Shown here: in pieces, positions 1,128 through 43,974 of the stretch
Position numbering within the stretch: position 1 is the first letter of the stretch
Layout: the number at the start of each line of letters is the position of its first letter
From: Minisyncoccota bacterium
GTDB lineage: Bacteria > Patescibacteriota > Minisyncoccia > Phycocordibacterales > UBA9973
DNA length: 64,000 bases
NCBI GenBank assembly: GCA_041657885.1
Contig: JBBABB010000001.1
Coordinates: 1,094-65,093 of the forward strand
Direction of reading: 5' to 3'
Translations under genes and position numbers: made by a program
The notes under the pieces: model-generated
What the model was told of the DNA's origin: nothing
Databases searched by the model: none
Seen by the model: only the letters and a program-made list of their open reading frames with translations

Positions 1128-1331
1128 ATGAATGAATCAGAAAAACTGGGCGAAAATCTAAAACGTATTAGAACTGCAAAAGGTATCTCGCAAGGCGAGA
1201 TTGGCCGAATACTTGAAGTAGATAAAAGTTTTATAAGTAATATTGAAAATGGTAAAACAAATCCCACTCTTTCAACGATTGCAAAAATAGCAAAAGCGGT
1301 CGGGGTGTCGGTCGGGGAGTTAATGAAATAG
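1128..1331 (+). CDS. XRE/Cro-C1 family helix-turn-helix transcriptional regulator
   Basis: 67 aa. LKRIRTAKGISQGEIGRILEVDKSFISNIENGKTNPTLSTIAKIAKAVGVSVGEL is a canonical HTH_3 motif. The stop lies 2 nt before the next ORF, implying an operon. Confidence 0.8.
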   Translation: MNESEKLGENLKRIRTAKGISQGEIGRILEVDKSFISNIENGKTNPTLSTIAKIAKAVGVSVGELMK

Positions 1332-1333
1332 TT

Positions 1334-2923
1334 ATGAAAATAAAAGAAATTAAAATTATCAACAATACAGAAACTTGTGCTGATATAAACCTAATTCTAG
1401 GTGCTAACAACACGGGTAAAAGTACTTTTATAAGAGAGCTTGAAGAAGCAAGTAAAACCTGTCAAATTGGGTTAAAGAACAAATGGATAACAGGCGTAAA
1501 ATTTGAGGCGTCTGGAATCAAGACTAGATTTGATAGTTTATTTCCCGGAGTATCTGCCTTTGCTGTTTACGAGGGAACAGAACAAGAAATAAATAGTATT
1601 GGAGGAGCAAATATTTTTAGTTCAAACTGGAATAATGAAGTTTTTCAAGCAATGAAGGCAAAGCTGGATACTTCTGAAACATATGAAGCTATAACTCATC
1701 CATCAAAAGATAGGGATTGGCATTATTTTAGTTTTGTTAATAATATGTCTGTTTCTATGGAAAACTGTGATTCAAGATTATCAGGACCATTTTTTACTCA
1801 AATAAACAGGGTGGATGAAAATTATAAAGATATAGTTCATTACTTTTATTCACAAAACTCTCTTTTTCAAAAAATATCAGATCATATTAAAGATGTTTTT
1901 GGTATAGAAATTATTTTTGACGACTTAGAGCAAGGACAAAAAGATATCCGCTTAGCACCTGATGTTGCTAAACCTGCTTCTTTTCCAAACCGTAGAAATG
2001 AAGGTCAGTTTTGGGCAGAACATTCTCCGATATTAGCTTCTCAAGGTGATGGCTTGAAAGCTTACTTGAAAATATTATACGCTCTCTTTAATCCCGCAAA
2101 GGATGTGATCATAATTGATGAACCTGAAGCATTTTTACATTCACCTCAAAGAAGAAGTTTAGGTAAATTCATTGCCGATAACGCATCTAGTGGTAAGCAA
2201 ATATTTATTTCTACTCATGATAGTGAATTTTTAAGAGGAGTTCTCACAAATACTACCTGTGATACACAAGTAGTTCATTTAAAAGAGAAACTAGGTAAAA
2301 GAAGCTATACAGTTAATAGAACACCTTCAAATACCAGAACGAGAAATAATAATGAACTCATGCTTAATTCTTATTTTAATAAATTAACCGTATTATGCGA
2401 AGCCGAAGACGATAGAGTAATTTATCAATATGCAAGTCAATCTTTTTTCCCTACACCGACGGTTGATATTCATTTTCTTGGACTCAATGCTAAAAGTGAT
2501 TTGTTTCTAATATTCAAACATTTACAGAGTTTAGAAATTGAAACCGTAGGAATAGTGGATATCGATGTTCTTTATTCAGGAGAATGTTTAGGGCTTTCTC
2601 TTAACCAAACAGAAAAAAATTTAATAGAGGAGGTGAAAAACCTCTTAAATGCTTTATCACAAGCAGACAGAGATATATTTAAGGAAAATGGGGTTGTCTC
2701 TCTGTCGTCCAATGCTTCACTTAGTCAGAAGGTTCAAGATGCAATACAAATAGCGAAGAAATACAAAATTTTTATTGTACCCATAGGAGAACTTGAGAGT
2801 TGGCTAGATACACCAACCGCATCAAAAAGAAAAGTGCAGGCTATGAAAAATGAGATCGACACAAGTCCAACGACTACAAAAAAATCAACCTTAAAAAAAT
2901 TCATAGGAGAAGTTATTTCTTAA
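1334..2923 (+). CDS. OLD-family / PARIS-like ABC-type ATPase fused to a Toprim nuclease (putative anti-phage or abortive-infection effector)
   Basis: Walker A ILGANNTGKST, Walker B VIIIDEPEAFLHSPQ and H-loop ISTHDSEF. The C-terminal half carries Toprim-like acidic motifs (VLCEAEDD, GIVDIDVLYSGE). It is coupled to the upstream HTH gene. Confidence 0.6.
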   Translation: MKIKEIKIINNTETCADINLILGANNTGKSTFIRELEEASKTCQIGLKNKWITGVKFEASGIKTRFDSLFPGVSAFAVYEGTEQEINSIGGANIFSSNWNNEVFQAMKAKLDTSETYEAITHPSKDRDWHYFSFVNNMSVSMENCDSRLSGPFFTQINRVDENYKDIVHYFYSQNSLFQKISDHIKDVFGIEIIFDDLEQGQKDIRLAPDVAKPASFPNRRNEGQFWAEHSPILASQGDGLKAYLKILYALFNPAKDVIIIDEPEAFLHSPQRRSLGKFIADNASSGKQIFISTHDSEFLRGVLTNTTCDTQVVHLKEKLGKRSYTVNRTPSNTRTRNNNELMLNSYFNKLTVLCEAEDDRVIYQYASQSFFPTPTVDIHFLGLNAKSDLFLIFKHLQSLEIETVGIVDIDVLYSGECLGLSLNQTEKNLIEEVKNLLNALSQADRDIFKENGVVSLSSNASLSQKVQDAIQIAKKYKIFIVPIGELESWLDTPTASKRKVQAMKNEIDTSPTTTKKSTLKKFIGEVIS

Positions 2924-2942
2924 AATAAAACTACAAAGGGAG

Positions 2943-2966
2943 TTTGCCGATTCGCAAATCGGCAAA
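2943..2966 (+). terminator. Stem-loop (9-bp stem, CGCA loop) immediately after the OLD-like gene stop
   Basis: tttgccgatt cgca aatcggcaaa forms a perfect hairpin. There is no strong U-tract, so the terminator assignment is tentative. Confidence 0.35.
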
Positions 2967-3263
2967 GGTTAACACGCGCATGGGCGTGGGTGGGTGAGAA
3001 GCGAATACTTGGAGCTTCGCAAGGCCGGAGGCTGGCGAGCCGAGGCGGGGTCGCAGGATTTTTCCGCAGAAAAATACCTGTGACAATGACTAATACGTAC
3101 GACCTCCCCTCCAAAAAACTCTCCCTCCAAAAAATCTTGGGCTTTTGAATTTTTGAACCTCACCCTAAAAAAACGCGAAGCGTCCGGAAACCCTTTGCCA
3201 CACTACGCAGAGCTTCGCTCTGCTCGCGAAAATTTTTCTGAAAAACCCTTGAGTTTGATTGCG

Positions 3264-3496
3264 GAGTATCTTTTAAAATCAGCTAGAACCTATTTTAGTA
3301 AAAATTGTTCCTAAAAACCTATCAAACGAACTAATGCGCACGCTCCGCGTGCCTCTTAACTTTAAACTAATTACCACGCTCTACTAATGTGCTAATTCCA
3401 AATGGACTCAGAAAATGGAAACAAATATTTTGGGGATTAGGATTTCCATTTTCCTCGACTGTATCTTTTGGCGAGATTTCAAATTCTGCCCGCAGG
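3264..3496. repeat. Left copy of a ~233-bp inverted repeat bracketing the R-M module
   Basis: The reverse complement of 8829-9060 matches this segment with about 5 differences (1 indel, ~4 substitutions). It contains internal hairpins (gcacgc..gcgtgc; aaaatggaaa..tttccatttt). Confidence 0.85.
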
Positions 3497-3572
3497 AGGG
3501 GTTTGGGGAGGAATGCGGGCGAAATTTATTGGTAGGCTATGGAAAGAATGCAAAAAATGTTAGAATTACTCT

Positions 3573-4412
3573 GTGGAATATATAAACAAAGTTTATTTTA
3601 AAGATGCTAGAAAAATGACAGAATTACCAGACAATTCTGTACAGTTAATTGTAACTAGTCCTCCTTATTTCAATATAAAAGATTATTCTCTTGACGGATA
3701 TCAAAAAAATAAAAAAGCTCAAAAAGCAACTGGTCAAATTGGTGATATCGCAGATTATGAAAAATACATTGATGAAATGGTTTTGGTTTGGAAAGAATGT
3801 GAGCGTGTATTAAAACCGAATGGAAAGTTAATAATTAATACACCACTTATGCCGATGTTAAAAAAAAATCTGATCACTCATTACAACAGGCACATTTTTA
3901 ATATTAACAACGACATAGAACACTCAATATTAAAAAAAACTAATTTGTTTTTAATGGATGTTTATTTTTGGAATAGAACGAATCCGAGCAAAAAACTAAT
4001 GTTCGGTAGCTATCCATATCCGCGAAATTTTTATGCTCAAAATACAACAGAGTTTATAACTGTGTTTGTGAAAGACGGAATTCCAGAAAATAATCTCCCA
4101 GCAAAAATTAAAGATAGAAGTAAATTGAGCCAAAAAGAATGGGTAGAATTTACTAAGCAAATTTGGAATATTCCAATCCCCGGCAAAGGCGATTTGGCTT
4201 TTGGAGAACATTCAGCACTAATGCCAGAAGAAATTGTTAGGCGTTGTGTTAGATTATTTACCTTTGTTGAAGATGTTGTCTTAGACCCATTTGCAGGATC
4301 AGGGACTACTTTAAAAGTAGCAAAGGAATTAGAAAGAAATTTTGTCGGGTATGAGATTTCTAAAAGTTATGAGGATATTATAAAATTAAAGTTGCGACCT
4401 AAATTATTTTAA
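3573..4412 (+). CDS. DNA methyltransferase, beta-class amino-MTase (N6-adenine or N4-cytosine); M subunit 1 of a Type II R-M system
   Basis: Motif IV TSPPY lies N-terminal to motif I DPFAGSGTT, which is the beta permutation. The likely true start is ATG at 3615 (MTELPDNS), since the track start at 3573 is a GTG. Confidence 0.85.
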   Translation: MEYINKVYFKDARKMTELPDNSVQLIVTSPPYFNIKDYSLDGYQKNKKAQKATGQIGDIADYEKYIDEMVLVWKECERVLKPNGKLIINTPLMPMLKKNLITHYNRHIFNINNDIEHSILKKTNLFLMDVYFWNRTNPSKKLMFGSYPYPRNFYAQNTTEFITVFVKDGIPENNLPAKIKDRSKLSQKEWVEFTKQIWNIPIPGKGDLAFGEHSALMPEEIVRRCVRLFTFVEDVVLDPFAGSGTTLKVAKELERNFVGYEISKSYEDIIKLKLRPKLF

Positions 4413-4415
4413 TTT

Positions 4416-5198
4416 ATGCTTAAAATTAACAAAATCTATAATTTAGACTGCTTCGACTTTTTAAGTAAAGTTGATGATTCGTCAATCAATCTTGCTGTTA
4501 TTGATCCCCCTTATAATATGAGCAAGGCAGATTGGGATACATTCAAATCACATAAAGACTTTTTGGATTTTACTTACAAATGGATAGACGCATTATTACC
4601 GAAATTAACACAAAATGGAAGTTTGTATATTTTTAACACACCATTTAACTCAGCATATATTTTACAATATCTTACTTCAAAAAATATGGTTTTCCAAAAT
4701 TGGATTACTTGGGACAAAAGAGATGGGCTTGGAACATCAAAAAGAAAATATAGCAATGGACAAGAATCAATACTATTTTTCACAAAATCTGATAAACATA
4801 TTTTTAATTACAACGATATAAGAGTTCCTTATGAATCCACAGACAGAATAGAACACGCCGTTAAAAAAGGAATCTTAAAAAATGGTGAGAGATGGTTTCC
4901 TAACCCGAACGGAAGATTTTGTGGAGAAGTTTGGCACATCACTAGTGAACGACACAAAAGAAAAATAAATGGGAAAGTTCAAAAAATGGAACACTTAACA
5001 CCTAAGCCGTTGGATTTAATTGAAAGAATTGTAAAAGCAAGTTCTAAAAAAGGAGATTTAGTTTTGGATTGCTTCGTCGGTAGCGGAACGACAGCAGTTG
5101 CTTCAAAAATACTAGGTAGAAATTTTTTGTGTTCCGATATAGACAAAAAATATGTTAAATTAGCAGAAAAAAATTTATATTTATATGCCGATAAATAA
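4416..5198 (+). CDS. Second beta-class amino DNA methyltransferase (M subunit 2)
   Basis: IDPPYN (motif IV) is followed C-terminally by DCFVGSGTTAVAS (motif I). It starts 3 nt after the M1 stop. Confidence 0.85.
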   Translation: MLKINKIYNLDCFDFLSKVDDSSINLAVIDPPYNMSKADWDTFKSHKDFLDFTYKWIDALLPKLTQNGSLYIFNTPFNSAYILQYLTSKNMVFQNWITWDKRDGLGTSKRKYSNGQESILFFTKSDKHIFNYNDIRVPYESTDRIEHAVKKGILKNGERWFPNPNGRFCGEVWHITSERHKRKINGKVQKMEHLTPKPLDLIERIVKASSKKGDLVLDCFVGSGTTAVASKILGRNFLCSDIDKKYVKLAEKNLYLYADK

Positions 5199-6901: not shown

Positions 6902-6929
6902 TACTTACAACTGAATAGTTCGATCAAGA

Positions 6930-7367
6930 GTGGTGGTAGAGAATTGGCTCGATGACCCCACAGCAACCTGCTTCGGTAAGGTGCTAAATCCAACCAGACA
7001 CGAAAGTGTCAGGAAAGATGTGTTTGTGCCTAGTCCGCACAAAAACTCTTTCCTCTTTATTAGAGGAATTTTTTATTTTATGAAGAAAATACCAGAAGGT
7101 TTAGTTAGGTGTGAAGTATGTGGAGAGTATAAAGGTGAGGTAAAAGAGAAAGACTTAAATTGGGGCGACTCTTGTTTTTACAAAGCAGAAGTAGAAAAGA
7201 GTGAAGAATACCTCTCTGTGTCTTGTCTTTGCGACGGCATCTTATGTCATAAGTGTAAGAAAAATAAAATTCATAGGCCTATATCAAATTCTTATGATGA
7301 GATTGATAATGACATTGGTCATTGGCCGTGGTTCACCGGAATGATGCCATGTAAAGAGTGTAAATAA
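6930..7367 (+). CDS. Small cysteine-rich zinc-ribbon protein; likely real start at ATG ~7080 (MKKIPEGL...)
   Basis: CEVCG...SCLCDGILCHKCKK...PCKECK gives three CxxC pairs. The upstream 150 nt of the track ORF looks like a structured 5' UTR rather than coding sequence. Confidence 0.4.
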   Translation: MVVENWLDDPTATCFGKVLNPTRHESVRKDVFVPSPHKNSFLFIRGIFYFMKKIPEGLVRCEVCGEYKGEVKEKDLNWGDSCFYKAEVEKSEEYLSVSCLCDGILCHKCKKNKIHRPISNSYDEIDNDIGHWPWFTGMMPCKECK

Positions 7368-31184: not shown

Positions 31185-32975
31185 TTGAGGGGTGGACTCT
31201 GTAATCAGAGGACGGGGTGGAAAATCATTATGAAAGAAAAGATACAAAAATTAATACAAGAGATATTGAAAAAACTCGATATAGATGAGTGTGATTTTTC
31301 AGTTGAACATCCAGATGATTTTAAAAATGGAGATTATTCGACAAATGTGGCGATGGTTTGTGCTAAGCAATTGAAAACTAATTCAAAGGAATTTGCAGAG
31401 AAAATAGTTATAGAATTAAGGGGTTTACCGAAGCAAGGCTTCGGTGGAATTGAAAAAATGGAAGTTGCCGGTCTTGGATTTATAAATTTCTATTTATCAC
31501 GAGAATTTTTTACAGATAGTATCAAAGAGATTTTGGAACAAAAAGAAGATTGGGGAAAGAATAATTTATTAAAAGGGAAGAAAATTATGGTTGAATATAC
31601 AGACCCGAATCCTTTTAAACCCTTTCATATAGGGCATTTAATGGCGAATACAATAGGTGAATCAATATCTCGAATTGTGGAATTCTCTGGCGCAAAAACC
31701 ATAAGAGCGAATTATCAGGGTGATGTAGGTCCCCATGTGGCAAAAGCAATATACGGGCTTATGAAATTTGGAATGCCTGATTTATCGAAGTCTATATCAG
31801 AACAAGCTCAATATATTGGTGAATGTTATTCAAAGGGAAGTAATCTATATGATACAGATGAAAATGCAAAAAAAGAAATAGATGAAATAAATAAAAAAAT
31901 TTACGACAAGACAAATCCCGATATAAATAAAATTTATGATTGGGGGAAAAAGGCAACTCTTGATGCTTTTGAAGAAATTTATAAAATTCTGGGAACAAAA
32001 TTTGATTACTATTTCTTTGAAAGTGAAATGACAATAATAGGTGAAAAAATTGTTAGGGAAAATATTGGAAAAGTTTTTGATGAATCAGATGGCGCAATAA
32101 TATTTCACGGTGAAAACTATGATAAAAAACTTCACACTCGTGTTTTTATAAATTCTCAAGGATTGCCGACTTATGAGACAAAGGAAATTGGTCTCACCGT
32201 TACAAAGTTTGAAAAAGAAAACCCTGATATTTCAATAATAACAACAGCGATAGAGCAAGCTGAATATATGAAAGTTGTCCAGAAAGCAATTTCTATAATG
32301 CATCCAAATCTTGAATCAAGAATGAAACATATTACGCACGGCATGATGCGCCTTTCAACTGGGAAGATGTCTTCAAGAAAAGGTAATGTCATTACCGGTG
32401 AGTCACTTTTACGTGATTCGATGGATGTTGTATATGAAAAAGTCAAAAATCGTGAACTAACAGATGAAGAAAAAAAGAAAATTTCTGAGATTGTTGGAGT
32501 TGCGGCGCTCAAATATTCAATACTTCGTTCATCACTTGGTAGTGATATTGTTTATGATTTTGAAAAATCAATTTCTTTTGATGGAGATTCAGGTCCATAT
32601 TTACAATATACTGCTGTTCGCGCAAATTCTATTTTGTTGAAAGCAGATAGTTTTAAAAAAGTAGGAGTTGGAATTCCAGAAGAAATAACTGAATTAGAAA
32701 AAATATTATATCAATTTCCTGAAGTTGTAGAACAATCATATAATCTTCTTGAACCTCACCACATCGCCACTTATCTCACCCAACTTGCAAGTGCATTTAA
32801 TACTTTCTATGGAAACACAAAAATATTGCCTGCCCGCCCTCACGATGGTTCGGGAGCAAGTGGGGAGAGTGGCAATAAATACATGAGCTATCATCTTGAA
32901 CTCGTAAAAGCGTTTTATCAAACCATGAAGAATGGTCTCTGGCTACTAGGTATTGAAACACCAGAAAAAATGTAA
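31185..32975 (+). CDS. argS: Arginyl-tRNA synthetase
   Basis: HIGH motif (PFHIGHLM) and anticodon-binding DALK-like C-terminus. The likely start is ~31230 (MKEKIQKL). Confidence 0.9.
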   Translation: MRGGLCNQRTGWKIIMKEKIQKLIQEILKKLDIDECDFSVEHPDDFKNGDYSTNVAMVCAKQLKTNSKEFAEKIVIELRGLPKQGFGGIEKMEVAGLGFINFYLSREFFTDSIKEILEQKEDWGKNNLLKGKKIMVEYTDPNPFKPFHIGHLMANTIGESISRIVEFSGAKTIRANYQGDVGPHVAKAIYGLMKFGMPDLSKSISEQAQYIGECYSKGSNLYDTDENAKKEIDEINKKIYDKTNPDINKIYDWGKKATLDAFEEIYKILGTKFDYYFFESEMTIIGEKIVRENIGKVFDESDGAIIFHGENYDKKLHTRVFINSQGLPTYETKEIGLTVTKFEKENPDISIITTAIEQAEYMKVVQKAISIMHPNLESRMKHITHGMMRLSTGKMSSRKGNVITGESLLRDSMDVVYEKVKNRELTDEEKKKISEIVGVAALKYSILRSSLGSDIVYDFEKSISFDGDSGPYLQYTAVRANSILLKADSFKKVGVGIPEEITELEKILYQFPEVVEQSYNLLEPHHIATYLTQLASAFNTFYGNTKILPARPHDGSGASGESGNKYMSYHLELVKAFYQTMKNGLWLLGIETPEKM

Positions 32976-32983
32976 GCTAAAAA

Positions 32984-33011
32984 GTAGTAAGTAGTAAGTA
33001 GTAAGTAGTAT
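32984..33011. repeat. GTAGTAA heptamer tandem array (about 4 copies) abutting the start codon of the next gene
   Basis: gtagtaa gtagtaa gtagtaa gtagtATG. Confidence 0.7.
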
Positions 33012-34746
33012 GGAATATAAATCAGAAAATCGAATATGCCAAAACTGCAAAAATGACTTCACTATTGAGCCAGATGATTTTTTGTTTTATGAAAAAATTA
33101 AAGTTCCCCCGCCTACATTTTGTCCAAATTGTAGACGAATCAGAAGATGGGTGTGGAGGAATGAAAGAACTTACTATAAAAGAAAGTGTAATGTGCCTAA
33201 CCATTCTGAGGAAATTGTCAGTCTTTATAGTCCAGAGCAACCATTTTTTGTGTATGACCAAAAATATTGGTGGTCTGACCAATGGGACCCCTTAGATTAC
33301 GGTGTGGATTATGATTTTTCGGAATCATTTTTTAAACAATTTTCGAAACTACTTAAGAATATTCCATTGATAACTTTATCAAACACCGAGGCTATAAATA
33401 GTGAATATTGCAGTTCTACTGCTTGGAATAAGGATTGTTACTTAATAAGTGCAAGTGGCTGGAACGAAAAAGTTTTATACTCTAATAGACTAGCAAAAAA
33501 TAAAGATTCGATGGATTTATATATAGCTGATAATAACGAATTGTGTTATGAGGATTTATATTGCAATAAATGTTACCAAACTTGTTACTCTAATCAGTGT
33601 GAAGGATGTAGTGATTCAATGTTTTTACACAATTGTCGTAATTGCTCCAATTGTTTTGGATGTACTAATTTAATGGGGCAAGATCATTGTTTTTTCAATA
33701 AGAAATTACCTAAAGAAGAATATAAAAGAAAAATTGCACAGCTTAATCTAGGAAGTTCAAAAGAAATTCAAAAGATAAAAAGAAAATTTTACGAAGAAAT
33801 ATATCTTAATACAATAAATAAATACTCCGACCAAATAAATTGTATCAATTCAACTGGTGACCACTTGCGTAACACAAAAAATTGCCACGAGTGTTATGAT
33901 TTTCCCGGTGATAATAATGAAGATTGTAAATTTGTAGATTGGGGGGGTTTTAAATCAAAAGATATATATGATACTGGGCCAGGTGTCGGCTGGAATACTG
34001 AACTTGTCTATGAGGGGGTAGATAATAACGACGACTCAAATATGATAGGTTGTATCGTCTGTTATAATTCAAATAATTTGTTTTATTGTATGAATTGTCA
34101 TGGTTCTTCAAATTTATTTGCTTGCATAGGGCTTCGTAATAAAAAGTACTGTATTCTTAATAAACAATATACAAAAGAAGAGTACGATGAAATAATTTTA
34201 AAAATAAAAAAACAAATGGAAGAAATTCCTTATATTGATAGAAGAGGAATGATTTATAAATATGGAGAATTTTTTCCATCAGAATTATCGCCATTTGCTT
34301 ACAATGAAACAGTAGCCCAAGAATATAACCCATTAACCAAGGAGCAAGCTCTAGAACAAGGTTACAAATGGAAAGACAAAGAAGAAAGAAACTATCAAAT
34401 AGACATTAAGAACGAAGACATTCCTGATAATATTAAAGATATAACTGATGATATCATCGGTAAAGTCATTGAATGTGGTCATAAAGGAGAATGTAACCAA
34501 CAATGTACCGAAGCCTTCAAGATAATTCCCGAAGAACTTCAATTCTACCAACGGATGAACCTTCCTCTACCTCGTCTCTGTCCTAATTGTCGTCATTATG
34601 AACGACTCTCCCAACGTAATCCTCTTAAACTCTGGCACCGTTCCTGTATGAAAGAGGGATGTAATAATGAATTTGAAACTAGCTACTCACCAGATCGACC
34701 TGAGATAGTATATTGTGAACGTTGTTATCAGAATGAAGTGTATTAA
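33010..34746 (+). CDS. Large cysteine-rich protein with duplicated N- and C-terminal zinc ribbons and internal Cys-rich repeats (unknown function)
   Basis: N-terminal FLFYEKIKVPPPTFCPNCRRIRR resembles C-terminal LQFYQRMNLPLPRLCPNCRHYER. The interior has many Cys clusters. Confidence 0.5.
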   Translation: MEYKSENRICQNCKNDFTIEPDDFLFYEKIKVPPPTFCPNCRRIRRWVWRNERTYYKRKCNVPNHSEEIVSLYSPEQPFFVYDQKYWWSDQWDPLDYGVDYDFSESFFKQFSKLLKNIPLITLSNTEAINSEYCSSTAWNKDCYLISASGWNEKVLYSNRLAKNKDSMDLYIADNNELCYEDLYCNKCYQTCYSNQCEGCSDSMFLHNCRNCSNCFGCTNLMGQDHCFFNKKLPKEEYKRKIAQLNLGSSKEIQKIKRKFYEEIYLNTINKYSDQINCINSTGDHLRNTKNCHECYDFPGDNNEDCKFVDWGGFKSKDIYDTGPGVGWNTELVYEGVDNNDDSNMIGCIVCYNSNNLFYCMNCHGSSNLFACIGLRNKKYCILNKQYTKEEYDEIILKIKKQMEEIPYIDRRGMIYKYGEFFPSELSPFAYNETVAQEYNPLTKEQALEQGYKWKDKEERNYQIDIKNEDIPDNIKDITDDIIGKVIECGHKGECNQQCTEAFKIIPEELQFYQRMNLPLPRLCPNCRHYERLSQRNPLKLWHRSCMKEGCNNEFETSYSPDRPEIVYCERCYQNEVY

Positions 34747-35141
34747 GAATAAGTAGTATGTAGAATGTAGAAAGTAATATTAAAGCAATTAAGAATTAAA
34801 ATGAAAGAAGAAAAAAGGGCTCAGCACATCAATGTTGAGCCCATAACCTTCGAGGGGTAGAGTAAGTGGTGTTTGTTTTTAAACCCCAGAAAGGTTTATT
34901 CCTCGACATCAGTAGACCGTTTTTTACGGCCGTCGGGGTTTGCCTTGGGCAGTGTCTGCAAGGAACAGATTTAATGTTATATATTCCCCAAGGAGATATA
35001 TAGAACAAAAAGATTGCCCTAATAAGGCTGAACTATTATGTTCTGCTCGCATACCGTTAGGCGCATCTCAAAAGGGCAATCTATTTAATATATTACATAA
35101 ACCTATGAAAAAAGCAATATTTCTGTTAAAATCATCCATAT

Positions 35142-38100
35142 ATGGATAAGAACAACGAAAAGAGCCCACCCGCCTCCGCACAAGGCTATGGCGAGGCAAA
35201 GTCAGCGTTACCCGCCTCTGCAGAACGCTCCGGCGTGGCAAAGCGAGAAGAGGCAATTTTACAATTCTGGAAAGAAAATAAAATTTTTGAAAAAAGTTTA
35301 GAAAAAGAAGCACCAAAAGGAAAGTATGTTTTTTATGATGGTCCTCCTTTTGCTTCTGGTCTTCCTCATTATGGACATATACTTGGCAGTACGGCTAAAG
35401 ATGTAATTGGCAGATATAAAACTATGTGCGGATTTAATGTTCCACGACGTTGGGGTTGGGATTGTCATGGTTTACCAATTGAAAATATTGTTGAAAAAGA
35501 TTTGGGAATTTCTGGAAAGAAAGCCATTGAAGCACTGGGAATTGATAAATTCACCGAACATGCGCGCAGTAAAGTTTTAACTTATGTAAGCGAATGGAAA
35601 AAGACGATAGATCGTATGGGGCGCTGGGTAGATTTTAATAATTCTTACAAAACTATGGACAACACTTTCATTGAAAGTGTTTGGTGGGCTCTTGGTGAGA
35701 TGAATAAAAAAGAATTACTTTATGAAGGAGTCCGAGTGCTTGCTTATTGTCCTCGTTGTGAGACACCGATTGCAAATTCTGAAATTGCCATGGATAATAG
35801 TTATAAAGATATTACAGATATTTCTGTATATGTGAAATTCCAACTTACAGAGGCTTCACATTCTCAAATTTCTTCGTGCTTTACCCTAAAGGGCTCCGAC
35901 GCGACGAAGAAATTAGAAAATGTTTTGACTATTTATCTATTGGCTTGGACGACGACTCCGTGGACGCTTCCCGGGAACACTGCTATTGCTATCAATAAAA
36001 AATTAAATTATGTATTAGTAAAAAATAAAATAGAGACAGGAGAAGAAATATTAATAGTGGCAAAAGAACTATTTGAAGGATTAAAAAATAAATTTAACAA
36101 TCCTGAGATAGTAAAAGAAGTGAAAGGCAGTGAACTTATAGGTCTTTCTTATGAACCATTATTCTCATATTATAAAAATAAAGACGTGGCAAAAAATCCA
36201 AATATTTGGAAAATTTGGCATGCCGATTTCGTAACGCTTGATAAGGGAACGGGTGTTGCTCATCAGGCTCCAGCTTTTGGAGAGGATGATATGGACCTTG
36301 CCAAGAAAAATAATGTTCCATTTATTCGTCATGTTGAACCGAATGGTGATTTCTCAAAAGAGATTACCGATTTCCCAAATGTAAAAGTCAAACCCAAAGA
36401 AGACCATCAATCTACAGATATCCTTATTATCAAACACCTTGCCCATGCTGGGCTTCTGTTTGCCAAAGAAAAAATTATTCACTCATATCCGTATTGTTAT
36501 CGTTGCGAGACACCGCTTCTTTACTATGCGTTGCCATCTTGGTTTGTGAATATTCAAAAAGTTAAAAATGATTTAGTAAAAAAAGGTGAAGAGATGAATT
36601 GGATTCCAGCGCATTTGAAAGAAGGACGTTTCAAAAATACAATGGAAAGTGCGCCTGATTGGACCATATCTAGGAATCGTTATTGGGCAAGCCCACTTCC
36701 TATTTGGAAAAATAAAGAGGGTAGGGTGATGGTAGTAAATTCACTTGAAGATTTAAAAATAAAAACAAAAAAATCAGGGAATAAATATTTTGTGATGAGG
36801 CATGGAGAATCAGAAGGAAATCTCAATGGACTTGTCAGTTCTTCTTATGAAGAAGATGATAATTTAACGGAAAATGGAAAAAGACAAGCTGAAGAAGCAT
36901 CTATAGGGTTAAAAAATAAAAAAATTGATTTAATTTTTTCTTCTCCCATTAAAAGAACCAAAGAAACAGCTGAAATTATGTGTTCCGCATTAGGTTTAGA
37001 TAAAAAAAATATTATTATAGATGATAGAATTCGTGAAATTTCTATTCCTGATTATGAAGGAAAAACATGGACAGAGTTTCGTAAAGATTTTCCTAATACA
37101 ATAGAAAACTTTTATCATATTAAAGAAAACAATGAATCATACAATGATGTTAAAAAAAGAGTTATGAATTTTCTTTATGAAATAGAAGAAAAATATAAAG
37201 ATAAAAATATTCTGATTGTTACTCATGCAGGTCCAATATGGCTTGCAATTTCAGGGGCTATGGGTTTTGATGCTAAAGAATCACTGAATATAAAGAATAT
37301 AGATACTTCTGGTAAAAATGCGGAATATCGAGAATTAGATTTTACTTTTATTCCTCACAATGAAAATTATGAGCTTGATTTACATAGGCCATATATTGAT
37401 TCTGTAACACTTGTTGATGAAAAAGGGGAAGAATATAAAAGAATTCCAGAGGTTGTGGATTGTTGGTTTGAGTCTGGCTCAATGCCATTCGCGCAAGACC
37501 ATTATCCATTTGAAAATAAAAATTGGCAAAAAGAAAATTTCCCAGCAGGATTTGTGGCTGAATATATAGCTCAAACAAGGACATGGTTTTACTATACTCA
37601 CACTATTTCAACAATACTTTTTGGGCATGCTCCATTTGAAAATGTGGTAACGACAGGAACTATTTTGGCAGAGGATGGGAGTAAAATGTCAAAATCAAAA
37701 AATAATTATCCAGACCCTTGGCTTTTGTTTGATAAATATGGAGTGGATGCTCTTCGTTTTTATCTGATGTCTAGTACTTTAATGAAAGGGGAAGATGTAA
37801 ATTTTTCTGAAAAATTAGTTCAAGAAGTTGCCAGTAAAATAGTTAACCGTTTTGACAATGTCATGGCTTTTTATGAATTGTATAGGAGTAAAGAAGTAGA
37901 AAGTAGTAAGGAAAAAATAGTAAGTAAAAATATTTTAGACCAGTGGATAATCGCGCGAACTTCACAATTTATTAATGAAGTGAAAGACAGTATGGAAATT
38001 TATGATATGGCACAAGCTGCAAAACCTTTTGATTTATTTGTTGAAGATCTCTCAACTTGGTATTTGCGTCGTTCGCGTGAAAGAATAAAAAATGGAGATG

Positions 38101-38789
38101 AAAATGCAAAACAGACACTATATTTTGTTTTAAAAACCGCCATTCAACCCTTCGCACCATTTATGCCTTTTATTGCAGAAGATATTTGGCAGAAATTAAA
38201 ATTTAATTCTGATCCAGAGAGTGTCCACTTAACAAACTTTTTCTTAGATGTTGAAACTAAAAAAATTGATAATAAAATTATCGAAGAAATGCAAAAAGCG
38301 CGTGAGGTTGTGACGCTTGGATTACAAGCTCGGCAGAAAGCGGGGATTCCGGTGAGACAACCGTTAAAAGAATTACGAATTACGAATTACGAATTACGAA
38401 AAGAATACGAGGAGATAATAAAAGATGAATTAAATGTAAAAGAAATTAAAATAATTAAAGGCGAAGAAGAGAAAGTTGAATTGGATACAAATATTACAGA
38501 AGAATTAAAGAAAGAAGGGCAATATCGCGAGCTTGTTCGAGCCATACAAGATATTCGTAAGAAAAATGGATTAAATCCAAATGATATTGTAACTCTCCAG
38601 ATTTCTGCTTCAACAGAAGGACAAGAATTGATAAATAAATTTAAAAAAGAATTAATGAAGGCAGTTAGTGCAAAAGAAATACAAATTAAAGAAAATAATG
38701 GGGTACCTGCCCGCAATACTTCTGGTACAGCTGATGCAGGCGGGGAAATAAAAATTGATGAATTAATATTTATAATTAGTCTTATATAA
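35142..38789 (+). CDS. ileS: Isoleucyl-tRNA synthetase carrying an embedded histidine-phosphatase-superfamily domain
   Basis: Class I motifs HYGH and KMSKS, plus WTISRNRYW and DCWFESGS. A ~190-aa insert between these two blocks (~36760-37340) carries RHGESEGN and THAG motifs. Confidence 0.9.
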   Translation: MDKNNEKSPPASAQGYGEAKSALPASAERSGVAKREEAILQFWKENKIFEKSLEKEAPKGKYVFYDGPPFASGLPHYGHILGSTAKDVIGRYKTMCGFNVPRRWGWDCHGLPIENIVEKDLGISGKKAIEALGIDKFTEHARSKVLTYVSEWKKTIDRMGRWVDFNNSYKTMDNTFIESVWWALGEMNKKELLYEGVRVLAYCPRCETPIANSEIAMDNSYKDITDISVYVKFQLTEASHSQISSCFTLKGSDATKKLENVLTIYLLAWTTTPWTLPGNTAIAINKKLNYVLVKNKIETGEEILIVAKELFEGLKNKFNNPEIVKEVKGSELIGLSYEPLFSYYKNKDVAKNPNIWKIWHADFVTLDKGTGVAHQAPAFGEDDMDLAKKNNVPFIRHVEPNGDFSKEITDFPNVKVKPKEDHQSTDILIIKHLAHAGLLFAKEKIIHSYPYCYRCETPLLYYALPSWFVNIQKVKNDLVKKGEEMNWIPAHLKEGRFKNTMESAPDWTISRNRYWASPLPIWKNKEGRVMVVNSLEDLKIKTKKSGNKYFVMRHGESEGNLNGLVSSSYEEDDNLTENGKRQAEEASIGLKNKKIDLIFSSPIKRTKETAEIMCSALGLDKKNIIIDDRIREISIPDYEGKTWTEFRKDFPNTIENFYHIKENNESYNDVKKRVMNFLYEIEEKYKDKNILIVTHAGPIWLAISGAMGFDAKESLNIKNIDTSGKNAEYRELDFTFIPHNENYELDLHRPYIDSVTLVDEKGEEYKRIPEVVDCWFESGSMPFAQDHYPFENKNWQKENFPAGFVAEYIAQTRTWFYYTHTISTILFGHAPFENVVTTGTILAEDGSKMSKSKNNYPDPWLLFDKYGVDALRFYLMSSTLMKGEDVNFSEKLVQEVASKIVNRFDNVMAFYELYRSKEVESSKEKIVSKNILDQWIIARTSQFINEVKDSMEIYDMAQAAKPFDLFVEDLSTWYLRRSRERIKNGDENAKQTLYFVLKTAIQPFAPFMPFIAEDIWQKLKFNSDPESVHLTNFFLDVETKKIDNKIIEEMQKAREVVTLGLQARQKAGIPVRQPLKELRITNYELRKEYEEIIKDELNVKEIKIIKGEEEKVELDTNITEELKKEGQYRELVRAIQDIRKKNGLNPNDIVTLQISASTEGQELINKFKKELMKAVSAKEIQIKENNGVPARNTSGTADAGGEIKIDELIFIISLI
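38371..38398 (+). repeat. GAATTAC heptamer x4 in-frame inside ileS
   Basis: gaattacgaattacgaattacgaattac encodes ELRITNYEL. Confidence 0.6.
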
Positions 38790-38790
38790 T

Positions 38791-39234
38791 ATGTTACCAA
38801 TTAAGCAATGTTATGGAATTGTTGTTGTTCTTAAAGAAGAACAATATAAATTTCTAATTCTAAAACAAGAAGATACTAAAGATAATAATAACTGGAGTTT
38901 TGCAAAAGGTCACGCAGAAGAAGGTGAGACACCAAAAGAAACAGCGATTAGAGAGTTGGAAGAAGAAACGGGAATAACAAAAATTGATATTCTTGATTTT
39001 CCACTTATTCATGAAGAATATGAGCTTATTTATCATGATGGGAAACATTTAAAAGTGAATGGATATTTTATAGGCTTTGTTAAAGAAAAAAAAGTTAAAA
39101 TTGATGAAAAAGAACTTAATTCTTATAAATGGGCAACATATGAAGAAGCTTTAAATACTTTTAGTCATGAAAGTCGCAAACAAGTGTTAAAAGAAGCTCA
39201 AAAATATATAAATAAAAATGGACTCACAAAATAA
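38791..39234 (+). CDS. NUDIX hydrolase
   Basis: Nudix box GHAEEGETPKETAIRELEEETGI. Confidence 0.75.
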   Translation: MLPIKQCYGIVVVLKEEQYKFLILKQEDTKDNNNWSFAKGHAEEGETPKETAIRELEEETGITKIDILDFPLIHEEYELIYHDGKHLKVNGYFIGFVKEKKVKIDEKELNSYKWATYEEALNTFSHESRKQVLKEAQKYINKNGLTK

Positions 39235-39850
39235 AAAATTAGTTATATTTGATTTTGATGGAGTATTGGTGGATACTTTGATTATGCACTATAAGATAAG
39301 TAGTAAAGTTAATAAAGGCATATCTCTCAACACGTTTAAATCATTTTTTGAGGGAAATATTCACAAAGCAATTAGGTTTGACGGAACACCAAAAATTCGA
39401 CACCATAATTTCAATGAGCTTTATAAACAACATACTCGTGAGTTGGTAATCCCTGAAATATTAAAAAATATTTTAAAAAATCTATCTGAAATGTATAACT
39501 TAGTAATAATTTCTTCGGCAGATACTTTTTTAATAAATGATATTTTGAATAAAGAATGTGTTGGAGTTTATTTCCAAGATATTTTGGGGGCAGATATGGC
39601 TCGTGATAAAACTGAAAAGATAAAAACTATTCTAAATAAATATAATATTGGATCTGAGAATTCAGTATTTGTTACTGATACATCTGGGGATGTCAGAGAA
39701 GGTTTTAAATGTGGAGTAAAATCTATCGCAGTAACGTGGGGATTCCATGACAGAAAAACGCTAGAAAACGCTAATCCTATCGCTATTATTGATGACCCAA
39801 GAGATTTATTGGGTGCGATAAAAAATGCCTGCCCCGTAGGAGATTTTTAA
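39218..39850 (+). CDS. HAD-superfamily hydrolase
   Basis: Motif I LVIFDFDGVLVD. Confidence 0.75.
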   Translation: MDSQNKKLVIFDFDGVLVDTLIMHYKISSKVNKGISLNTFKSFFEGNIHKAIRFDGTPKIRHHNFNELYKQHTRELVIPEILKNILKNLSEMYNLVIISSADTFLINDILNKECVGVYFQDILGADMARDKTEKIKTILNKYNIGSENSVFVTDTSGDVREGFKCGVKSIAVTWGFHDRKTLENANPIAIIDDPRDLLGAIKNACPVGDF

Positions 39851-39879
39851 AATCTCGTTCGGGGTGTTAAAATAGGGAT

Positions 39880-40446
39880 ATGAAAAAAGTATTTATGGTA
39901 CATGGATTTAAGGGAGAGCCAAATGGAGGTTGGCGACCTTGGCTTATGGGGGAACTTGCAAAGAAAGATATATACGCTTGTGCTTTACCAATGCCAAATC
40001 CTAATGCACCAGATAAAGAAGAATGGGTAAAAACAATAAAAGATGCAGTTGGAGAACCCACAGAAGAAATATTTTTGATTGGGCATTCTCTTGGTGTTCC
40101 TGCTATTTTAAGATATTTAGAAACTTTACCAAGTGAATCAAAAATTGGTGGAGCTGTCCTTGTGTCTGGTTTAATATATGAGATTAAAGAAAATGGTTAT
40201 GATTCTCTGAATAGTTTCTTAAACACACCATTTGATTTTAAGAAAATAAAAAGTGTTTGTGAAAATTTTGTAGTAATTCATGGTGATAATGATAAATCTG
40301 TTTCATTTGAAGAAGGGCAAGCTCTTTCTAAAATACTTTATTGTAATTTAATTTCTATACCTAATGGTAGCCACTTAAATGGATCTGCTAGGTTTTATAA
40401 ATTACCTGAAGCACTGGATTCTTTACTAAAAATGATAAAAAACTAA
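39880..40446 (+). CDS. Alpha/beta serine hydrolase (YdeN/RBBP9-like)
   Basis: GHSLG nucleophile elbow. Confidence 0.55.
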   Translation: MKKVFMVHGFKGEPNGGWRPWLMGELAKKDIYACALPMPNPNAPDKEEWVKTIKDAVGEPTEEIFLIGHSLGVPAILRYLETLPSESKIGGAVLVSGLIYEIKENGYDSLNSFLNTPFDFKKIKSVCENFVVIHGDNDKSVSFEEGQALSKILYCNLISIPNGSHLNGSARFYKLPEALDSLLKMIKN

Positions 40447-40490
40447 CATAACGACTTTTCGCGGTCGTCAAAAAGTGTTATACTTATTAT

Positions 40491-40982
40491 ATGAACAATA
40501 AATATAGAAATACTTTTTCTGAAGAGCTAATTGCTTTTTTGTTTTCGTGTAAATCTCATAAAATGCGAAGAGCGATTCTATATGAATTTGCTAAAAAAAG
40601 ATTTGAGATGGAAAAGTCTGTTTATAATCAGAATATATATCGTCTAAAAAAGAATGGTTTTTTAATTCAGGACGAAGATGTTTTTTTTCTTTCTTTAAAG
40701 GGGGTTTCTTATTACACTAATCCGTATAGACATATTAAAGAAAAAATAGATAAGAAAAATAAAATAATTATTATTTTTGATATACCGGAAAATAAAAGAA
40801 AAGTTAGAGAATGGATAAGAAGCCAAATAAAATTTTGGGATTTTGAAATGATCCAGAAGAGTGTATGGGTGGGGTATGGGCCATTACCATCTGAATTTAT
40901 GAGTCGTTTAAGGATGTTGGGAGTATATGATGGAGTGAGGATTTTTAACGTACAAAGTAAAAATAGTACCGTAACGAAATAA
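40491..40982 (+). CDS. Small winged-HTH plus Cas2/VapD-like-pattern protein (paralog B)
   Basis: IIIIFDIPENKRKVREWIRSQIKFWDFEMIQKSVWVG matches paralog A (28862-29338). It is flanked by ~21-bp direct repeats (40460-40481 / 40985-41004). Confidence 0.35.
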   Translation: MNNKYRNTFSEELIAFLFSCKSHKMRRAILYEFAKKRFEMEKSVYNQNIYRLKKNGFLIQDEDVFFLSLKGVSYYTNPYRHIKEKIDKKNKIIIIFDIPENKRKVREWIRSQIKFWDFEMIQKSVWVGYGPLPSEFMSRLRMLGVYDGVRIFNVQSKNSTVTK

Positions 40983-41040
40983 TGCGGTCGCGAAATAGTG
41001 TTATGGTTTAGTTTTAGGAAATTTGTGCTAAAATAAAGGT

Positions 41041-41433
41041 ATGAAAACTATTTTAGTTGATGCTGTACATTGTTTTATAATAGAAAGAAAAGGAAAATTT
41101 GTCGTTTTTGCAGATATGTATAAATTACTTGAAGAGTACCTGAACAGAAAGATTGTCTTAACTGGTGCAAATGACGAGGAAATAAAAAAATTTGAATTAG
41201 ATAATATACCTTATCAATACTTTACTCTAAAACATAACCCTGAAAAAACTAATCCTGAGTATTATAAAACACTACTGGCTAACCTAAATTTAAAGGAAAA
41301 TGGAGTAATTTATTTTGAACATAATATAAATGCTGTTAAAAGTGCTCAATCTATTGGAATGAATACTTATCATTATGATAATGATAAAAAAGATTTAGAA
41401 AGTTTAAAAAATTTTCTAGACGATAATTTGTAA
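41041..41433 (+). CDS. Hypothetical, HAD-like small protein
   Basis: ILVDAVH near the N-terminus; weak evidence. Confidence 0.3.
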   Translation: MKTILVDAVHCFIIERKGKFVVFADMYKLLEEYLNRKIVLTGANDEEIKKFELDNIPYQYFTLKHNPEKTNPEYYKTLLANLNLKENGVIYFEHNINAVKSAQSIGMNTYHYDNDKKDLESLKNFLDDNL

Positions 41434-41476: not shown

Positions 41477-42061
41477 ATGCATCACATTTATCACACACAT
41501 GGATTTATATTAAGCTCTCGAAACACTGGCGAGGCGAATAAAATGTTCACGATTTACACTCGCGAGATGGGACTTGTGCGTGCAATGGCTCAAGGTATAC
41601 GGTTACACAAATCAAAACTTCGTTTTACCCTTCAAGATTTTTCTTATATTAATGTTGACTTAGTTAAAGGTAGGGAATTGTGGCGAGTTACTTCAGCCAA
41701 ACATATTTCTTCATTCCCATTTGCAAGAAGTAGTACTCCATCTCTTCTTTTGATTACAAGAATTAGTAAATTACTAGAACGACTTTGTACTGGAGAAAGC
41801 CCAAGTGAAAATATTTTTAATGATTTTATTCAAGCACTTTATTTATTAGATGATGAAAACATGACACCTCATTCTCGAGAAGCGCTTGAGTTACACCTTG
41901 TGCTTAGGATTATGAATAGTCTCGGATATATAGGAGATTCAGATATTTTGTCAAAGTATTTGTCTTCTTCGTTTGATTATAATAAAACAGAGATGTTACT
42001 TAAAGAGCGACAGTCCATAATTGCTTATATAAATAAAGCACTAAATGAGAGTCAATTATAA
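41477..42061 (+). CDS. recO: DNA repair protein RecO-like (short form)
   Basis: N-terminal OB-fold pattern (GFILSSRNTGEANKMFTIYTREMGLVRAMAQGIR). Confidence 0.55.
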   Translation: MHHIYHTHGFILSSRNTGEANKMFTIYTREMGLVRAMAQGIRLHKSKLRFTLQDFSYINVDLVKGRELWRVTSAKHISSFPFARSSTPSLLLITRISKLLERLCTGESPSENIFNDFIQALYLLDDENMTPHSREALELHLVLRIMNSLGYIGDSDILSKYLSSSFDYNKTEMLLKERQSIIAYINKALNESQL

Positions 42062-42087: not shown

Positions 42088-43974
42088 ATGCCCGAAGATA
42101 GTAAAAATAAAATTGAAGATGTAAAAAGACACCTCTATGACCCAAATGATAAATCAATGACCCACCAAAGAGAGGGTATATTACACCAGATAAGTCACAA
42201 TGTACCGCTTGAATGGAAAGAAGATAGTCAAACTAAATCGGAAGATAATATGAAGAATAAATTTAAAAAACCACCAGTATCAATATTTAAAAAGTTTTTT
42301 GTTGTCTCAATTATTTTTTTTATAGGAGCTTTGGGTTTTGCTTTCTATAAATTTTCTAATAATGATGTATCCGTATCAAGCGATAAGATAGATATAGAGG
42401 TTATTGGTAATTCTTTTACTAAAGGTGGAGATGAGTTGCCTCTTCAAATTGAAATTACTAATAATAATAATGCTAGTCTTGAACTCGCAAACCTTGTTAT
42501 AGAATATCCCAAAGGGGCAGATGATAGTGTTAATGATGTTGTTCGTCTACCTCGAGATGCTATAGGCACAGTAAAGCCCGGGGAAAGTATTATTAGAAAT
42601 ATTAAAGTTAAACTTTTTGGAGAAGAGAAATCAATTCGTAATATTAAAGTTAGCTTAGAATATCACCCCGAGGGTTCTAATGCAATTTTTACTAAAGACA
42701 AATTATATCCTGTCACAATAAGTTTGGCGCCGCTGTCTCTCATCATAGTGGCTCCTACTAGTATCTCTTCTGACCAGCCTATTTCATTTGAGATAACAGC
42801 TACATTAAATACTTCTTTACCAAACGAGAATACAATGTTGCAAGTGTCATACCCTAATAATTTCGTTTTTGATAGTGCTATACCAGCTCCTTCCTTAGGA
42901 AATTCTACTTGGGACCTTTCATCTATTACGGTCACAAACCCAGTAACCGTTGAAGTTAAAGGGCGTCTCATAGGTGAGGATGGCGATGAACAAGTATTTC
43001 ATGTTTATGCGGGGACAACCAATCAAACTAACCGGTCAGTAATAAATGTAATTTACAGTTCTATTTTGCAGAAAATTTTAATAACAAAGCCATTCCTTGA
43101 AGCGCATATTTTAGTTAATGGTCAAGACCAGACAGAGTACGCTGTTTCGGGAGGAACAACAGTTAACGGAGAGATAGCTTGGGCAAATAATTTACCAACA
43201 CGAATAACAGATGGACAAATTATTGTAAGTTTATCTGGTAATGTTTTTGATAAGAGTATGGTTAATTCAACTAATGGTTTTTATGATTCAGCGAATAATC
43301 AAATTATATGGGACAAGAATTCAGTCTCTGAATTATCAGAAATAAATCCCGGGGAAAAAGGAACAGCTTCATTTAGCTTTAAAATACCTTCTCTCGTTGG
43401 TTTATTAAATACTATTAAAGACCCACAAGTTTCTATTAAGGTCAGTATCAAAGGGAGACAACCACAACTTGGTTCTACTTATACTGATGTGAATAATTTT
43501 TCTGAAAAAGTGGTAAAGGTATTGTCTGATTTTCAGATTGCTTCATCTGCAACTTATCTTTTGGGAAGCATACCACCAAAAGCAGAAACTGAAACAAAGT
43601 ATACGGTTACTTGGACGCTTTCAAACTCTGCAAACAATATATCGGGAGCTCAAGCACGTTCTACATTACCAATATATATAAACTGGACTGGTGTTACAAC
43701 TGGAGAAAATGAAAATGTGACCTATAATGAAGTTTCTCGTGAAGTAATCTGGAATATAGGTTCGGTTCTTCCCAATACAGGGATAGATTCAAATCGCGAA
43801 GTTTCTTTTATTATTTCTCTTAAACCATCTTTATCTCAAGTAGGTAGTGTCCCTCAACTTATGAAAGAGATTTATCTTTCAGGGATGGATTCATTTGCTA
43901 ATGCTTTAATTAAAAATACTCGTGGCGTCATTACAACCTCATCAATTGGTGGTGATGGAAGGGTTACACAGTAA
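42088..43974 (+). CDS. Membrane-anchored cell-surface protein (unknown function)
   Basis: Single TM after ~75 aa, then a long beta-rich extracellular region. Confidence 0.4.
   Translation: MPEDSKNKIEDVKRHLYDPNDKSMTHQREGILHQISHNVPLEWKEDSQTKSEDNMKNKFKKPPVSIFKKFFVVSIIFFIGALGFAFYKFSNNDVSVSSDKIDIEVIGNSFTKGGDELPLQIEITNNNNASLELANLVIEYPKGADDSVNDVVRLPRDAIGTVKPGESIIRNIKVKLFGEEKSIRNIKVSLEYHPEGSNAIFTKDKLYPVTISLAPLSLIIVAPTSISSDQPISFEITATLNTSLPNENTMLQVSYPNNFVFDSAIPAPSLGNSTWDLSSITVTNPVTVEVKGRLIGEDGDEQVFHVYAGTTNQTNRSVINVIYSSILQKILITKPFLEAHILVNGQDQTEYAVSGGTTVNGEIAWANNLPTRITDGQIIVSLSGNVFDKSMVNSTNGFYDSANNQIIWDKNSVSELSEINPGEKGTASFSFKIPSLVGLLNTIKDPQVSIKVSIKGRQPQLGSTYTDVNNFSEKVVKVLSDFQIASSATYLLGSIPPKAETETKYTVTWTLSNSANNISGAQARSTLPIYINWTGVTTGENENVTYNEVSREVIWNIGSVLPNTGIDSNREVSFIISLKPSLSQVGSVPQLMKEIYLSGMDSFANALIKNTRGVITTSSIGGDGRVTQ

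Follow-up and report, generated by a model that had tools for sequence, protein, structure and literature searches.

What is a histidine phosphatase doing inside an isoleucyl-tRNA synthetase (IleRS)? The question is raised by ileS (35142..38789) on contig JBBABB010000001.1 of a Minisyncoccota bacterium (assembly GCA_041657885.1), in a 64,000-nucleotide stretch of DNA that was analysed as a whole and is called the window here. This gene and the parts of it located below are on the forward (+) strand. The original prediction, made from the letters alone, described a 1215-residue IleRS with a continuous frame, intact HYGH and KMSKS motifs, and a phosphatase domain embedded at 36760-37340. This description was borne out. 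The enzyme carries an intact, long-maintained histidine phosphatase. IleRS is also the exclusive partner of this phosphatase among the relatives that we examined, whether its gene adjoins ileS or the domain is nested in the synthetase.

The identity of the synthetase was established by profile search and alignment. One uninterrupted open reading frame (ORF) encodes all 1215 residues, and the full protein scored 849.9 bits on the NCBIfam model TIGR00392 (cut-off 621.4), which identifies it as a member of the ileS equivalog. Pfam returned tRNA-synt_1 (E 1.3e-123), His_Phos_1, Anticodon_1 (PF08264) and DUF5915 (PF19302). HYGH, the HIGH signature of the class I synthetic site, is at residues 76-79 (35367..35378) and the KMSKS loop is at residues 848-852 (37683..37697); both are invariant in alignment A1, the former as H52/Y53/G54/H55. 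The closest solved IleRS is Priestia megaterium IleRS2 (8C8U, 697 bits), to which HYGH, the CP1 editing domain, KMSKS, the anticodon domains and DUF5915 all align. The editing domain has its Thr-rich motif, since WTTTPWTLPGN and GTGVAHQAPAFGEDD align to 8C8U, and W245-W250 are invariant in alignment A1. The C-terminal organisation is that of a type-2 (eukaryote-like) enzyme, with Anticodon_1 and a DUF5915/ARD3-type domain (37938..38705) and without a C-terminal zinc-binding domain; IleRS domains are named here as in bioRxiv 10.64898/2026.02.03.703510. The bacterium belongs to Paceibacteria (candidate phyla radiation), and the window gene encodes its genuine type-2 IleRS. The mupirocin-resistance enzymes MupA and MupB were considered and rejected, as the scores of 685 and 654 bits were far from the exception cut-off of 1900 and the likeness is only that of type-2 IleRSs in general.

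The insert interrupts the catalytic domain. The final conserved IleRS block ahead of it, WTISRNRYWASPLPIW, is at residues 507-522 (36660..36707), and the alignment to 8C8U runs to chain residue 460. The catalytic domain restarts with DLHRPYID ... DCWFESGS (37377..37481), found by both motif search and the 8C8U alignment, where DLHRPYID is residues 746-753 and DCWFESGS is residues 773-780 (37458-37481). The spacing of about 250 residues first estimated between WTISRNRYWASPLPIW and DCWFESGS was exact, with 250 residues from W522 to D773 compared to about 57 between the same two motifs in 8C8U. Query residues 525 and 739 correspond to chain residues 460 and 480. The full inserted segment relative to an insert-less IleRS2 is therefore residues 526-738 (36717..37355), including both conserved junctions, and the 19-residue zinc-knuckle tip of 8C8U is replaced by 213 residues. 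Between the PLPIW strand and DLHRPYID/DCWFESGS, and within the predicted interval, is a His_Phos_1 domain (PF00300) of the branch-1 histidine phosphatase fold at residues 550-723 (36789..37310). Its E-value was 5.7e-39 and its score was 134.2 bits against a gathering score of 21.7, with profile positions 2-175 of 194 covered. The composition of the insert is ordinary for sequence of about 32% GC.

The domain has the complete catalytic set of its superfamily. The RHG motif supplies a phosphate-binding Arg and the nucleophilic His (R553 and H554, 36798..36803) and is part of RHGESEGN (residues 553-560, 36798-36821), so that N560 closes the motif. R605, in an S-x-x-x-R-T motif (36954..36956), is the second phosphate-binding Arg, E632 (37035..37037) is the presumed proton donor, and H695 of the VTHAG motif (37224..37226) is the second catalytic His, with THAGPIW spanning residues 694-700 (37221-37241). 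The roles of R553, H554, R605, E632 and H695 follow the established superfamily mechanism. A MAFFT alignment of 67 full-length fused sequences, 41-70% identical to the window enzyme, showed all of these residues and N560 to be invariant (67/67), thus answering the question of whether the catalytic His and Arg survive in orthologues. Across the same sequences, the mean identity to the window enzyme was 0.47 for the insert and 0.49 for the editing domain. This similar degree of conservation is consistent with purifying selection on the phosphatase.

The insert also appears to fold independently, as had been proposed. When modelled alone with AlphaFold2 from an alignment of 40 stand-alone relatives, it reached a predicted local distance difference test score (pLDDT) of 90 and a predicted TM-score (pTM) of 0.88, and the model superposes on solved histidine phosphatases. 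Foldseek ranked the phosphoserine phosphatase PspA (4IJ5/4IJ6) first (E 1e-14, TM-score 0.75), followed by the glucosyl-3-phosphoglycerate phosphatase GpgP, PhoE, HFP of the riboflavin pathway (9MMH) and the alpha-ribazole phosphatase CobC. The probability was 1.00 and the TM-scores were 0.72-0.76 for 4IJ5, 4QIH and 1H2E, and the ranking based on sequence agreed. In the model of residues 25-1215 (pLDDT 73, pTM 0.55), the insert was the best-predicted part. Three specific identities were tried and rejected. A cofactor-dependent phosphoglycerate mutase (dPGM) was not supported by dPGM_arch (105 bits, cut-off 225), GpmB (45, cut-off 261) or the remaining, weaker dPGM models. PspA scored 82.7 bits against a cut-off of 350, even though it is the nearest solved structure, and CobC failed with both TIGR03162 (97 bits, cut-off 162.9) and PRK15004 (60, cut-off 250). 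Since it is under the curated cut-off of every named equivalog, the domain represents a distinct subfamily.

The insertion point is the tip of a Cys4 zinc knuckle on a surface loop of the catalytic domain. After PLPIW, insert-less type-2 IleRSs such as 8C8U and the L081 enzyme read CxxC ... CxC, and the phosphatase separates the two halves. Zinc ions are reported in the zinc fingers of the P. megaterium enzyme (bioRxiv 10.64898/2026.02.03.703510). All four knuckle cysteines are kept in 26 of the 67 fused enzymes, three are kept in 2, and all are lost in 39, including the window enzyme, where VDEKGEEY stands in place of the CxC half of the ancestral knuckle. The junctions, ...DLKxKTKKSGNKYF and PLPHNxNYELDLHRPYID, are strongly conserved. 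The site is not equivalent to that of the leucine-specific domain of LeuRS, as that domain directly precedes KMSKS, while the loop used here runs from PLPIW to DLHRPYID/DxWFxSG.

A scan of one genome per GTDB species, with the insert and its flank as the query, showed how widespread the architecture is. The same fusion is encoded in 341 species genomes, with names that include Nomura-, Campbell-, Yonath- and Zambryskiibacteria, RAAC4_OD1_1 and 'Minisyncoccia'. In the 80 loci that were kept from these genomes, the fused enzyme is 41-70% identical to that of the window; the ORF is continuous in most, while in a few it is split or runs off the contig. PF00300 was present in all 120 of the best full-length homologues (61-100% identity, 1136-1232 residues), one of which comes from the groundwater Parcubacteria genomes of 2015. 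An identical protein, P0121, is encoded on a 361,958-bp contig of an NCBI metagenome-assembled genome of Candidatus Paceibacterota. The fusion is abundant in public databases, where it has the Pfam tag and is named only generically (for example, 'class I tRNA ligase family protein'). Carriers of the domain of about 500 or 915-980 residues were considered as split or editing-less IleRSs, and each turned out to be an ordinary fused enzyme whose ORF was truncated. A partial fused IleRS, P0045 (MDP2815778.1), is labelled Rectinemataceae (Spirochaetota) by NCBI. It lies on a 1440-bp contig and is either mis-binned or a case of the fusion outside Patescibacteria.

The phosphatase also exists as a separate protein. 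The closest stand-alone relatives are 186-200 residues long and 33-41% identical to the insert, and they form a large family within the same bacterial class. In 10 of 11 contexts, the stand-alone gene is immediately 5' of an insert-less ileS (952-970 residues), at distances from an 8-nucleotide overlap to a 41-nucleotide gap; ORFs that were cut short in these contexts were confirmed as IleRS by blastp, and the insert-less enzyme of L081 scored 734 bits on TIGR00392. One stand-alone protein, P0097, has no adjacent ileS. The partner synthetases are diverse, with one clade only 35% identical to the window enzyme and others 48-69% identical in the N-terminal part. In one locus (L093), the phosphatase remains beside ileS without argS nearby. 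The residue equivalent to E632 is mostly Asp in the stand-alone clade, and the best NCBIfam match of a stand-alone relative was NF005567 (92 bits, cut-off 326). In an unrooted neighbour-joining tree, the fused domains grouped with P0097, apart from the clade of stand-alone proteins encoded next to ileS (bootstrap support 71%). A second copy of the phosphatase was found neither in the window outside ileS nor beside the fused ileS genes. Because of the position of the stand-alone relatives immediately 5' of insert-less ileS, the window enzyme is the fused form of a conserved two-gene module of phosphatase and ileS, which a sister group has as separate genes, with a phosphatase of about 195 residues. 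Just upstream of the phosphatase-ileS pair of L093, positions 1254-4546 of that locus encode Peptidase_S24, PycTM and AGS_C domains and have a defence-like look.

The insert was used as the query of an exhaustive HMMER search, which returned 46 clusters at E <= 1e-30 and 2382 at E <= 1e-10. Every multidomain relative examined (20/20) was an IleRS. Three insertion sites were found and are mapped here on the window enzyme. Site A is that of the window (residues 540|740), site B follows DCWFESGS... and precedes ...QTRTWF (about residues 784-799), and site C is between the KMSKS/stem-contact part and the anticodon domain (residues 914|928). Two copies in tandem at site A occur in P0450, P0434, P0447 and P0476, and P0380, a protein cut at its end, has four tandem copies. 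Sites A and B are both occupied in P0471, sites A and C in P0412, P0442 and P0520, and sites B and C in P0421, which has six members or assemblies on contigs of up to 1.06 Mb. P0467, from a single contig, combines a site A phosphatase with a GNAT domain inserted at site B (residues 935-1063) and an IS200-like Y1 transposase domain that lies within the editing region (residues 340-461). P0467 links the phosphatase fusions to the curated family 'ileS_w_GNAT' and suggests that these ileS genes tolerate the in-frame capture of foreign ORFs. All complete copies, including duplicated ones, retain both Arg, both His and the Glu; the N560 position is replaced twice, by Ala in one copy and by Gln in one stand-alone copy. 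Stand-alone proteins with two phosphatase domains also exist. The insertions are multiple and independent-looking. Two of the multi-domain genes were read in their contigs, one of which has a GC content of 48%, and neither has the order argS-ileS-recO; for these reasons the fusion appears to reach beyond the immediate lineage of the window.

These results bear on what the domain does. The invariant catalytic residues, even in duplicated copies, point to an active domain. We think it is probably an active phosphatase that is functionally coupled to IleRS, and it is very unlikely that it works without catalysis. With its HYGH and KMSKS signatures, editing motifs and anticodon domains intact, the synthetase part would charge tRNA-Ile normally. 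In the phosphatase, His554 would attack a phosphomonoester held by R553, R605, N560 and H695, the leaving group would be protonated by E632, and the phospho-histidine intermediate would then be hydrolysed. The fold and the cap subdomain are those of PhoE, PspA, CobC, GpgP and HFP, and for this reason the favoured class of substrate is a small phosphomonoester, probably nucleotide-like or acidic; we lean slightly towards a small molecule here. It is unlikely that the substrate is instead a phosphate that blocks the tRNA-Ile 3' end or IleRS itself. The chance that all the parts hold together, namely that this is a real, ancient, active, IleRS-coupled phosphatase acting on a small molecule, we put at a little better than even. 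The use of three loops by one to four copies, with the catalytic residues kept in the complete ones, is the reason why selection seems to favour physical attachment to IleRS over a fixed position or orientation.

Four points weigh against this interpretation. The domain is under the cut-off of every NCBIfam equivalog. The quality of the model of residues 25-1215 is moderate at best (pTM 0.55), and its inter-domain arrangement is unreliable. The unrooted tree is compatible with either fusion or fission. Finally, a phosphatase that simply travels in permissive loops of the gene beside it would account equally well for insertion at several sites and in several copies.

This last point belongs to the main rival, which is that an ordinary metabolic enzyme of the phosphoserine, phosphoglycerate or riboflavin type happened to lie beside ileS and was later copied into permissive loops, gaining co-expression without any mechanistic link. 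The nearest structures are indeed all small-molecule metabolic phosphatases, and the spread of one to four copies over three loops indicates no geometric constraint. The setting is also suitable, with streamlined genomes, tightly packed operons and a region 3' of ileS that variably gathers hydrolases (Nudix, HAD and serine hydrolase). However, a housekeeping passenger does not readily account for the exclusivity of the pairing seen in the multidomain relatives and in the stand-alone genes that abut ileS. The partnership also spans IleRS clades that are only 35% identical to each other, and lineages that differ in GC content and synteny, it persists where argS is absent from beside ileS, and the domain is below the cut-off of all the named metabolic equivalogs. 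This rival therefore explains the lack of geometric constraint and does less well with exclusivity and persistence, and we consider it unlikely, though a serious competitor.

A second rival makes the domain an unblocking or repair module, which would remove a 2'/3'-(pyro)phosphate at tRNA-Ile A76, or would reverse the phosphorylation of an IleRS serine, such as one in the KMSKS loop, by a kinase-type toxin. Strict physical coupling to one synthetase is what such a module would need, and the several tethering points would all allow reach to the bound tRNA or to the enzyme's own loops. Related activities are known: the histidine phosphatase superfamily includes protein phosphatases (SixA, PGAM5 and Sts-1), HipA-type kinases inactivate aminoacyl-tRNA synthetases (aaRSs) by phosphorylating a loop of the ATP site, and toxSAS enzymes pyrophosphorylate tRNA CCA ends. 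On the other hand, we know of no member of the histidine phosphatase family that acts on RNA ends, and the helical cap is typical of enzymes with small substrates. The inspected loci showed neither kinase nor toxin genes in the vicinity of ileS, PADLOC gave no match for the insert, and no reason is evident why IleRS alone would require protection. We regard this explanation as doubtful. The same low chance goes to its fullest version, in which IleRS would have built-in immunity, with one or more tethered phosphatases stripping the tRNA-Ile 3' end or a phosphorylated IleRS loop so that charging resists kinase-type toxins from hosts, phages or competitors. If true, the histidine phosphatase superfamily would gain its first member directed at RNA ends or at an aaRS, and an anti-toxin activity built into an aaRS would be seen for the first time.

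It is also conceivable that the domain is a structural or regulatory pseudo-enzyme, either a plug that replaces the lost zinc knuckle or a binder of a phospho-ligand that regulates IleRS without turnover. The loss of all four knuckle cysteines in 39 of the 67 fused enzymes, the window's included, would suit a plug. Against this, the other 26 with a full set have the knuckle and the insert together, and the two Arg, two His and Glu are invariant in complete copies, with N560 varying in two, which is the signature of retained catalysis. The chance of a pseudo-enzyme is accordingly very slim. A frameshift or other assembly artefact, a chimera or a spliced-out, intein-like element is refuted and has next to no probability, because the same in-frame architecture recurs in hundreds of independent assemblies (341 species genomes, and over 120 protein clusters to which independent projects contributed), no composition break is seen beyond the usual AT-richness, the fold is that of a histidine phosphatase and not HINT, and the residue past the ...PHN junction varies (E/A/K/H/R/D/S/Q/T) where an intein requires Cys, Ser or Thr.

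The window enzyme can be compared with several known systems. The small broad-specificity or metabolic histidine phosphatases PhoE (1H2E/1EBB), PspA (4IJ5), CobC (6NRU), GpgP (4QIH) and HFP (9MMH) share the fold, size, cap subdomain and catalytic residues of the domain. They are only 21-28% identical to it and are free-standing, whereas the window domain is nested in an aaRS and its relatives are operonic with one. The curated family NF040702, 'ileS_w_GNAT', is a precedent for an IleRS with an additional enzymatic domain, and P0467 has both additions, but GNAT is absent from the window protein, which scores 330 on this model (cut-off 1999) and whose added enzyme is a phosphatase. The actinobacterial RNase H/acid phosphatase (NF005567; Rv2228c/RnhC) is similar in that a CobC-like phosphatase is fused to a nucleic-acid enzyme, although that fusion to RNase H is end-to-end and not a nested insertion in a synthetase. 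The physiological substrate of the Rv2228c/RnhC phosphatase is likewise unclear. The best-known example in which a histidine phosphatase shares a protein with another catalytic domain is 6-phosphofructo-2-kinase / fructose-2,6-bisphosphatase, which was matched by both sequence and fold. It differs in that its domains are joined end-to-end and both activities act on the same metabolite, while no shared substrate is evident here.

The claim that the arrangement was undescribed also stood, as no description of an aaRS-phosphatase fusion was found in the full-text-searchable literature. Nor is a phosphatase mentioned in a 2026 preprint that surveys how the domains of IleRS evolved (bioRxiv 10.64898/2026.02.03.703510). 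The component families and the existence of an IleRS with an added enzyme (NF040702) were known already; the pairing with a phosphatase and its recurrence appear to be new. Few enzymes have been studied as intensively as aaRSs, whose accessory domains have tended to point to new biology (editing, signalling or resistance, for instance). Here, an apparently active phosphatase is repeatedly tied to a single synthetase, as a neighbouring gene or at three nested sites with as many as four copies, and the carriers are hundreds of species in a major uncultivated bacterial radiation. This argues for an unrecognised phosphate-dependent step tied to isoleucine charging. At minimum, it would be an unusual route to multi-enzyme proteins through repeated nested insertion. 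The natural series of variants, insert-less with a partner, fused and multi-copy, provides ready-made controls, and the question is open to testing with recombinant proteins.

The neighbours of ileS in the window are partly conserved. argS (31185..32975, +; TIGR00456, 362 bits) is upstream in 61 loci, and recO (41477..42061, +; TIGR00613, 77 bits) was found in 63. A 628-residue protein with no family match (orf628; 42088..43974, +) is downstream of recO in 57 loci, and its counterpart in the stand-alone-phosphatase lineage is a DUF7619/CLIPPER-like protein. The order in that lineage, argS - phosphatase - ileS - recO - DUF7619-like protein, equals that of the window. Between argS and ileS, the window has a gene for a 578-residue Cys-rich protein with many CxxC pairs (33010..34746, +), which is in the same position in only 5 of the 80 related loci and had no match in Pfam, NCBIfam or PADLOC. 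From ileS to recO (38791-41433) are a Nudix gene that begins one base past the ileS stop codon, a HAD phosphatase, a Ser_hydrolase (PF06821), a PaaX/Cas2-like protein and a small HAD-like ORF. Nudix and HAD were considered as conserved partners 3' of ileS and rejected as variable cargo, since they were present in only 7 and 15 of the 80 loci, respectively.

Some minor observations concern the 5' side of ileS. A 390-nucleotide leader (34750-35141) has a GC content of 0.39-0.41 compared to about 0.32, and its minimum free energy is -96.6 kcal/mol (z = -3.7 relative to shuffled sequence). It had no Rfam match, T-box included, and no conserved counterpart in related loci; it could be a novel regulatory leader or merely a terminator and spacer. 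The N-terminal extension of IleRS, before about residue 28, is missing from the homologue alignments. A 34-nucleotide direct repeat at 35168-35243 (spacing 42 nucleotides, 82% identity) encodes PPASAQGYGEAKSA and LPASAERSGVAKRE in this extension. The actual start codon of ileS may be downstream of the annotated one. Elsewhere in the window, a SAM riboswitch (RF00162, 56.1 bits) at 6918-7024 (+) precedes an ORF of 145 residues, which is worth noting given the reduced metabolism.

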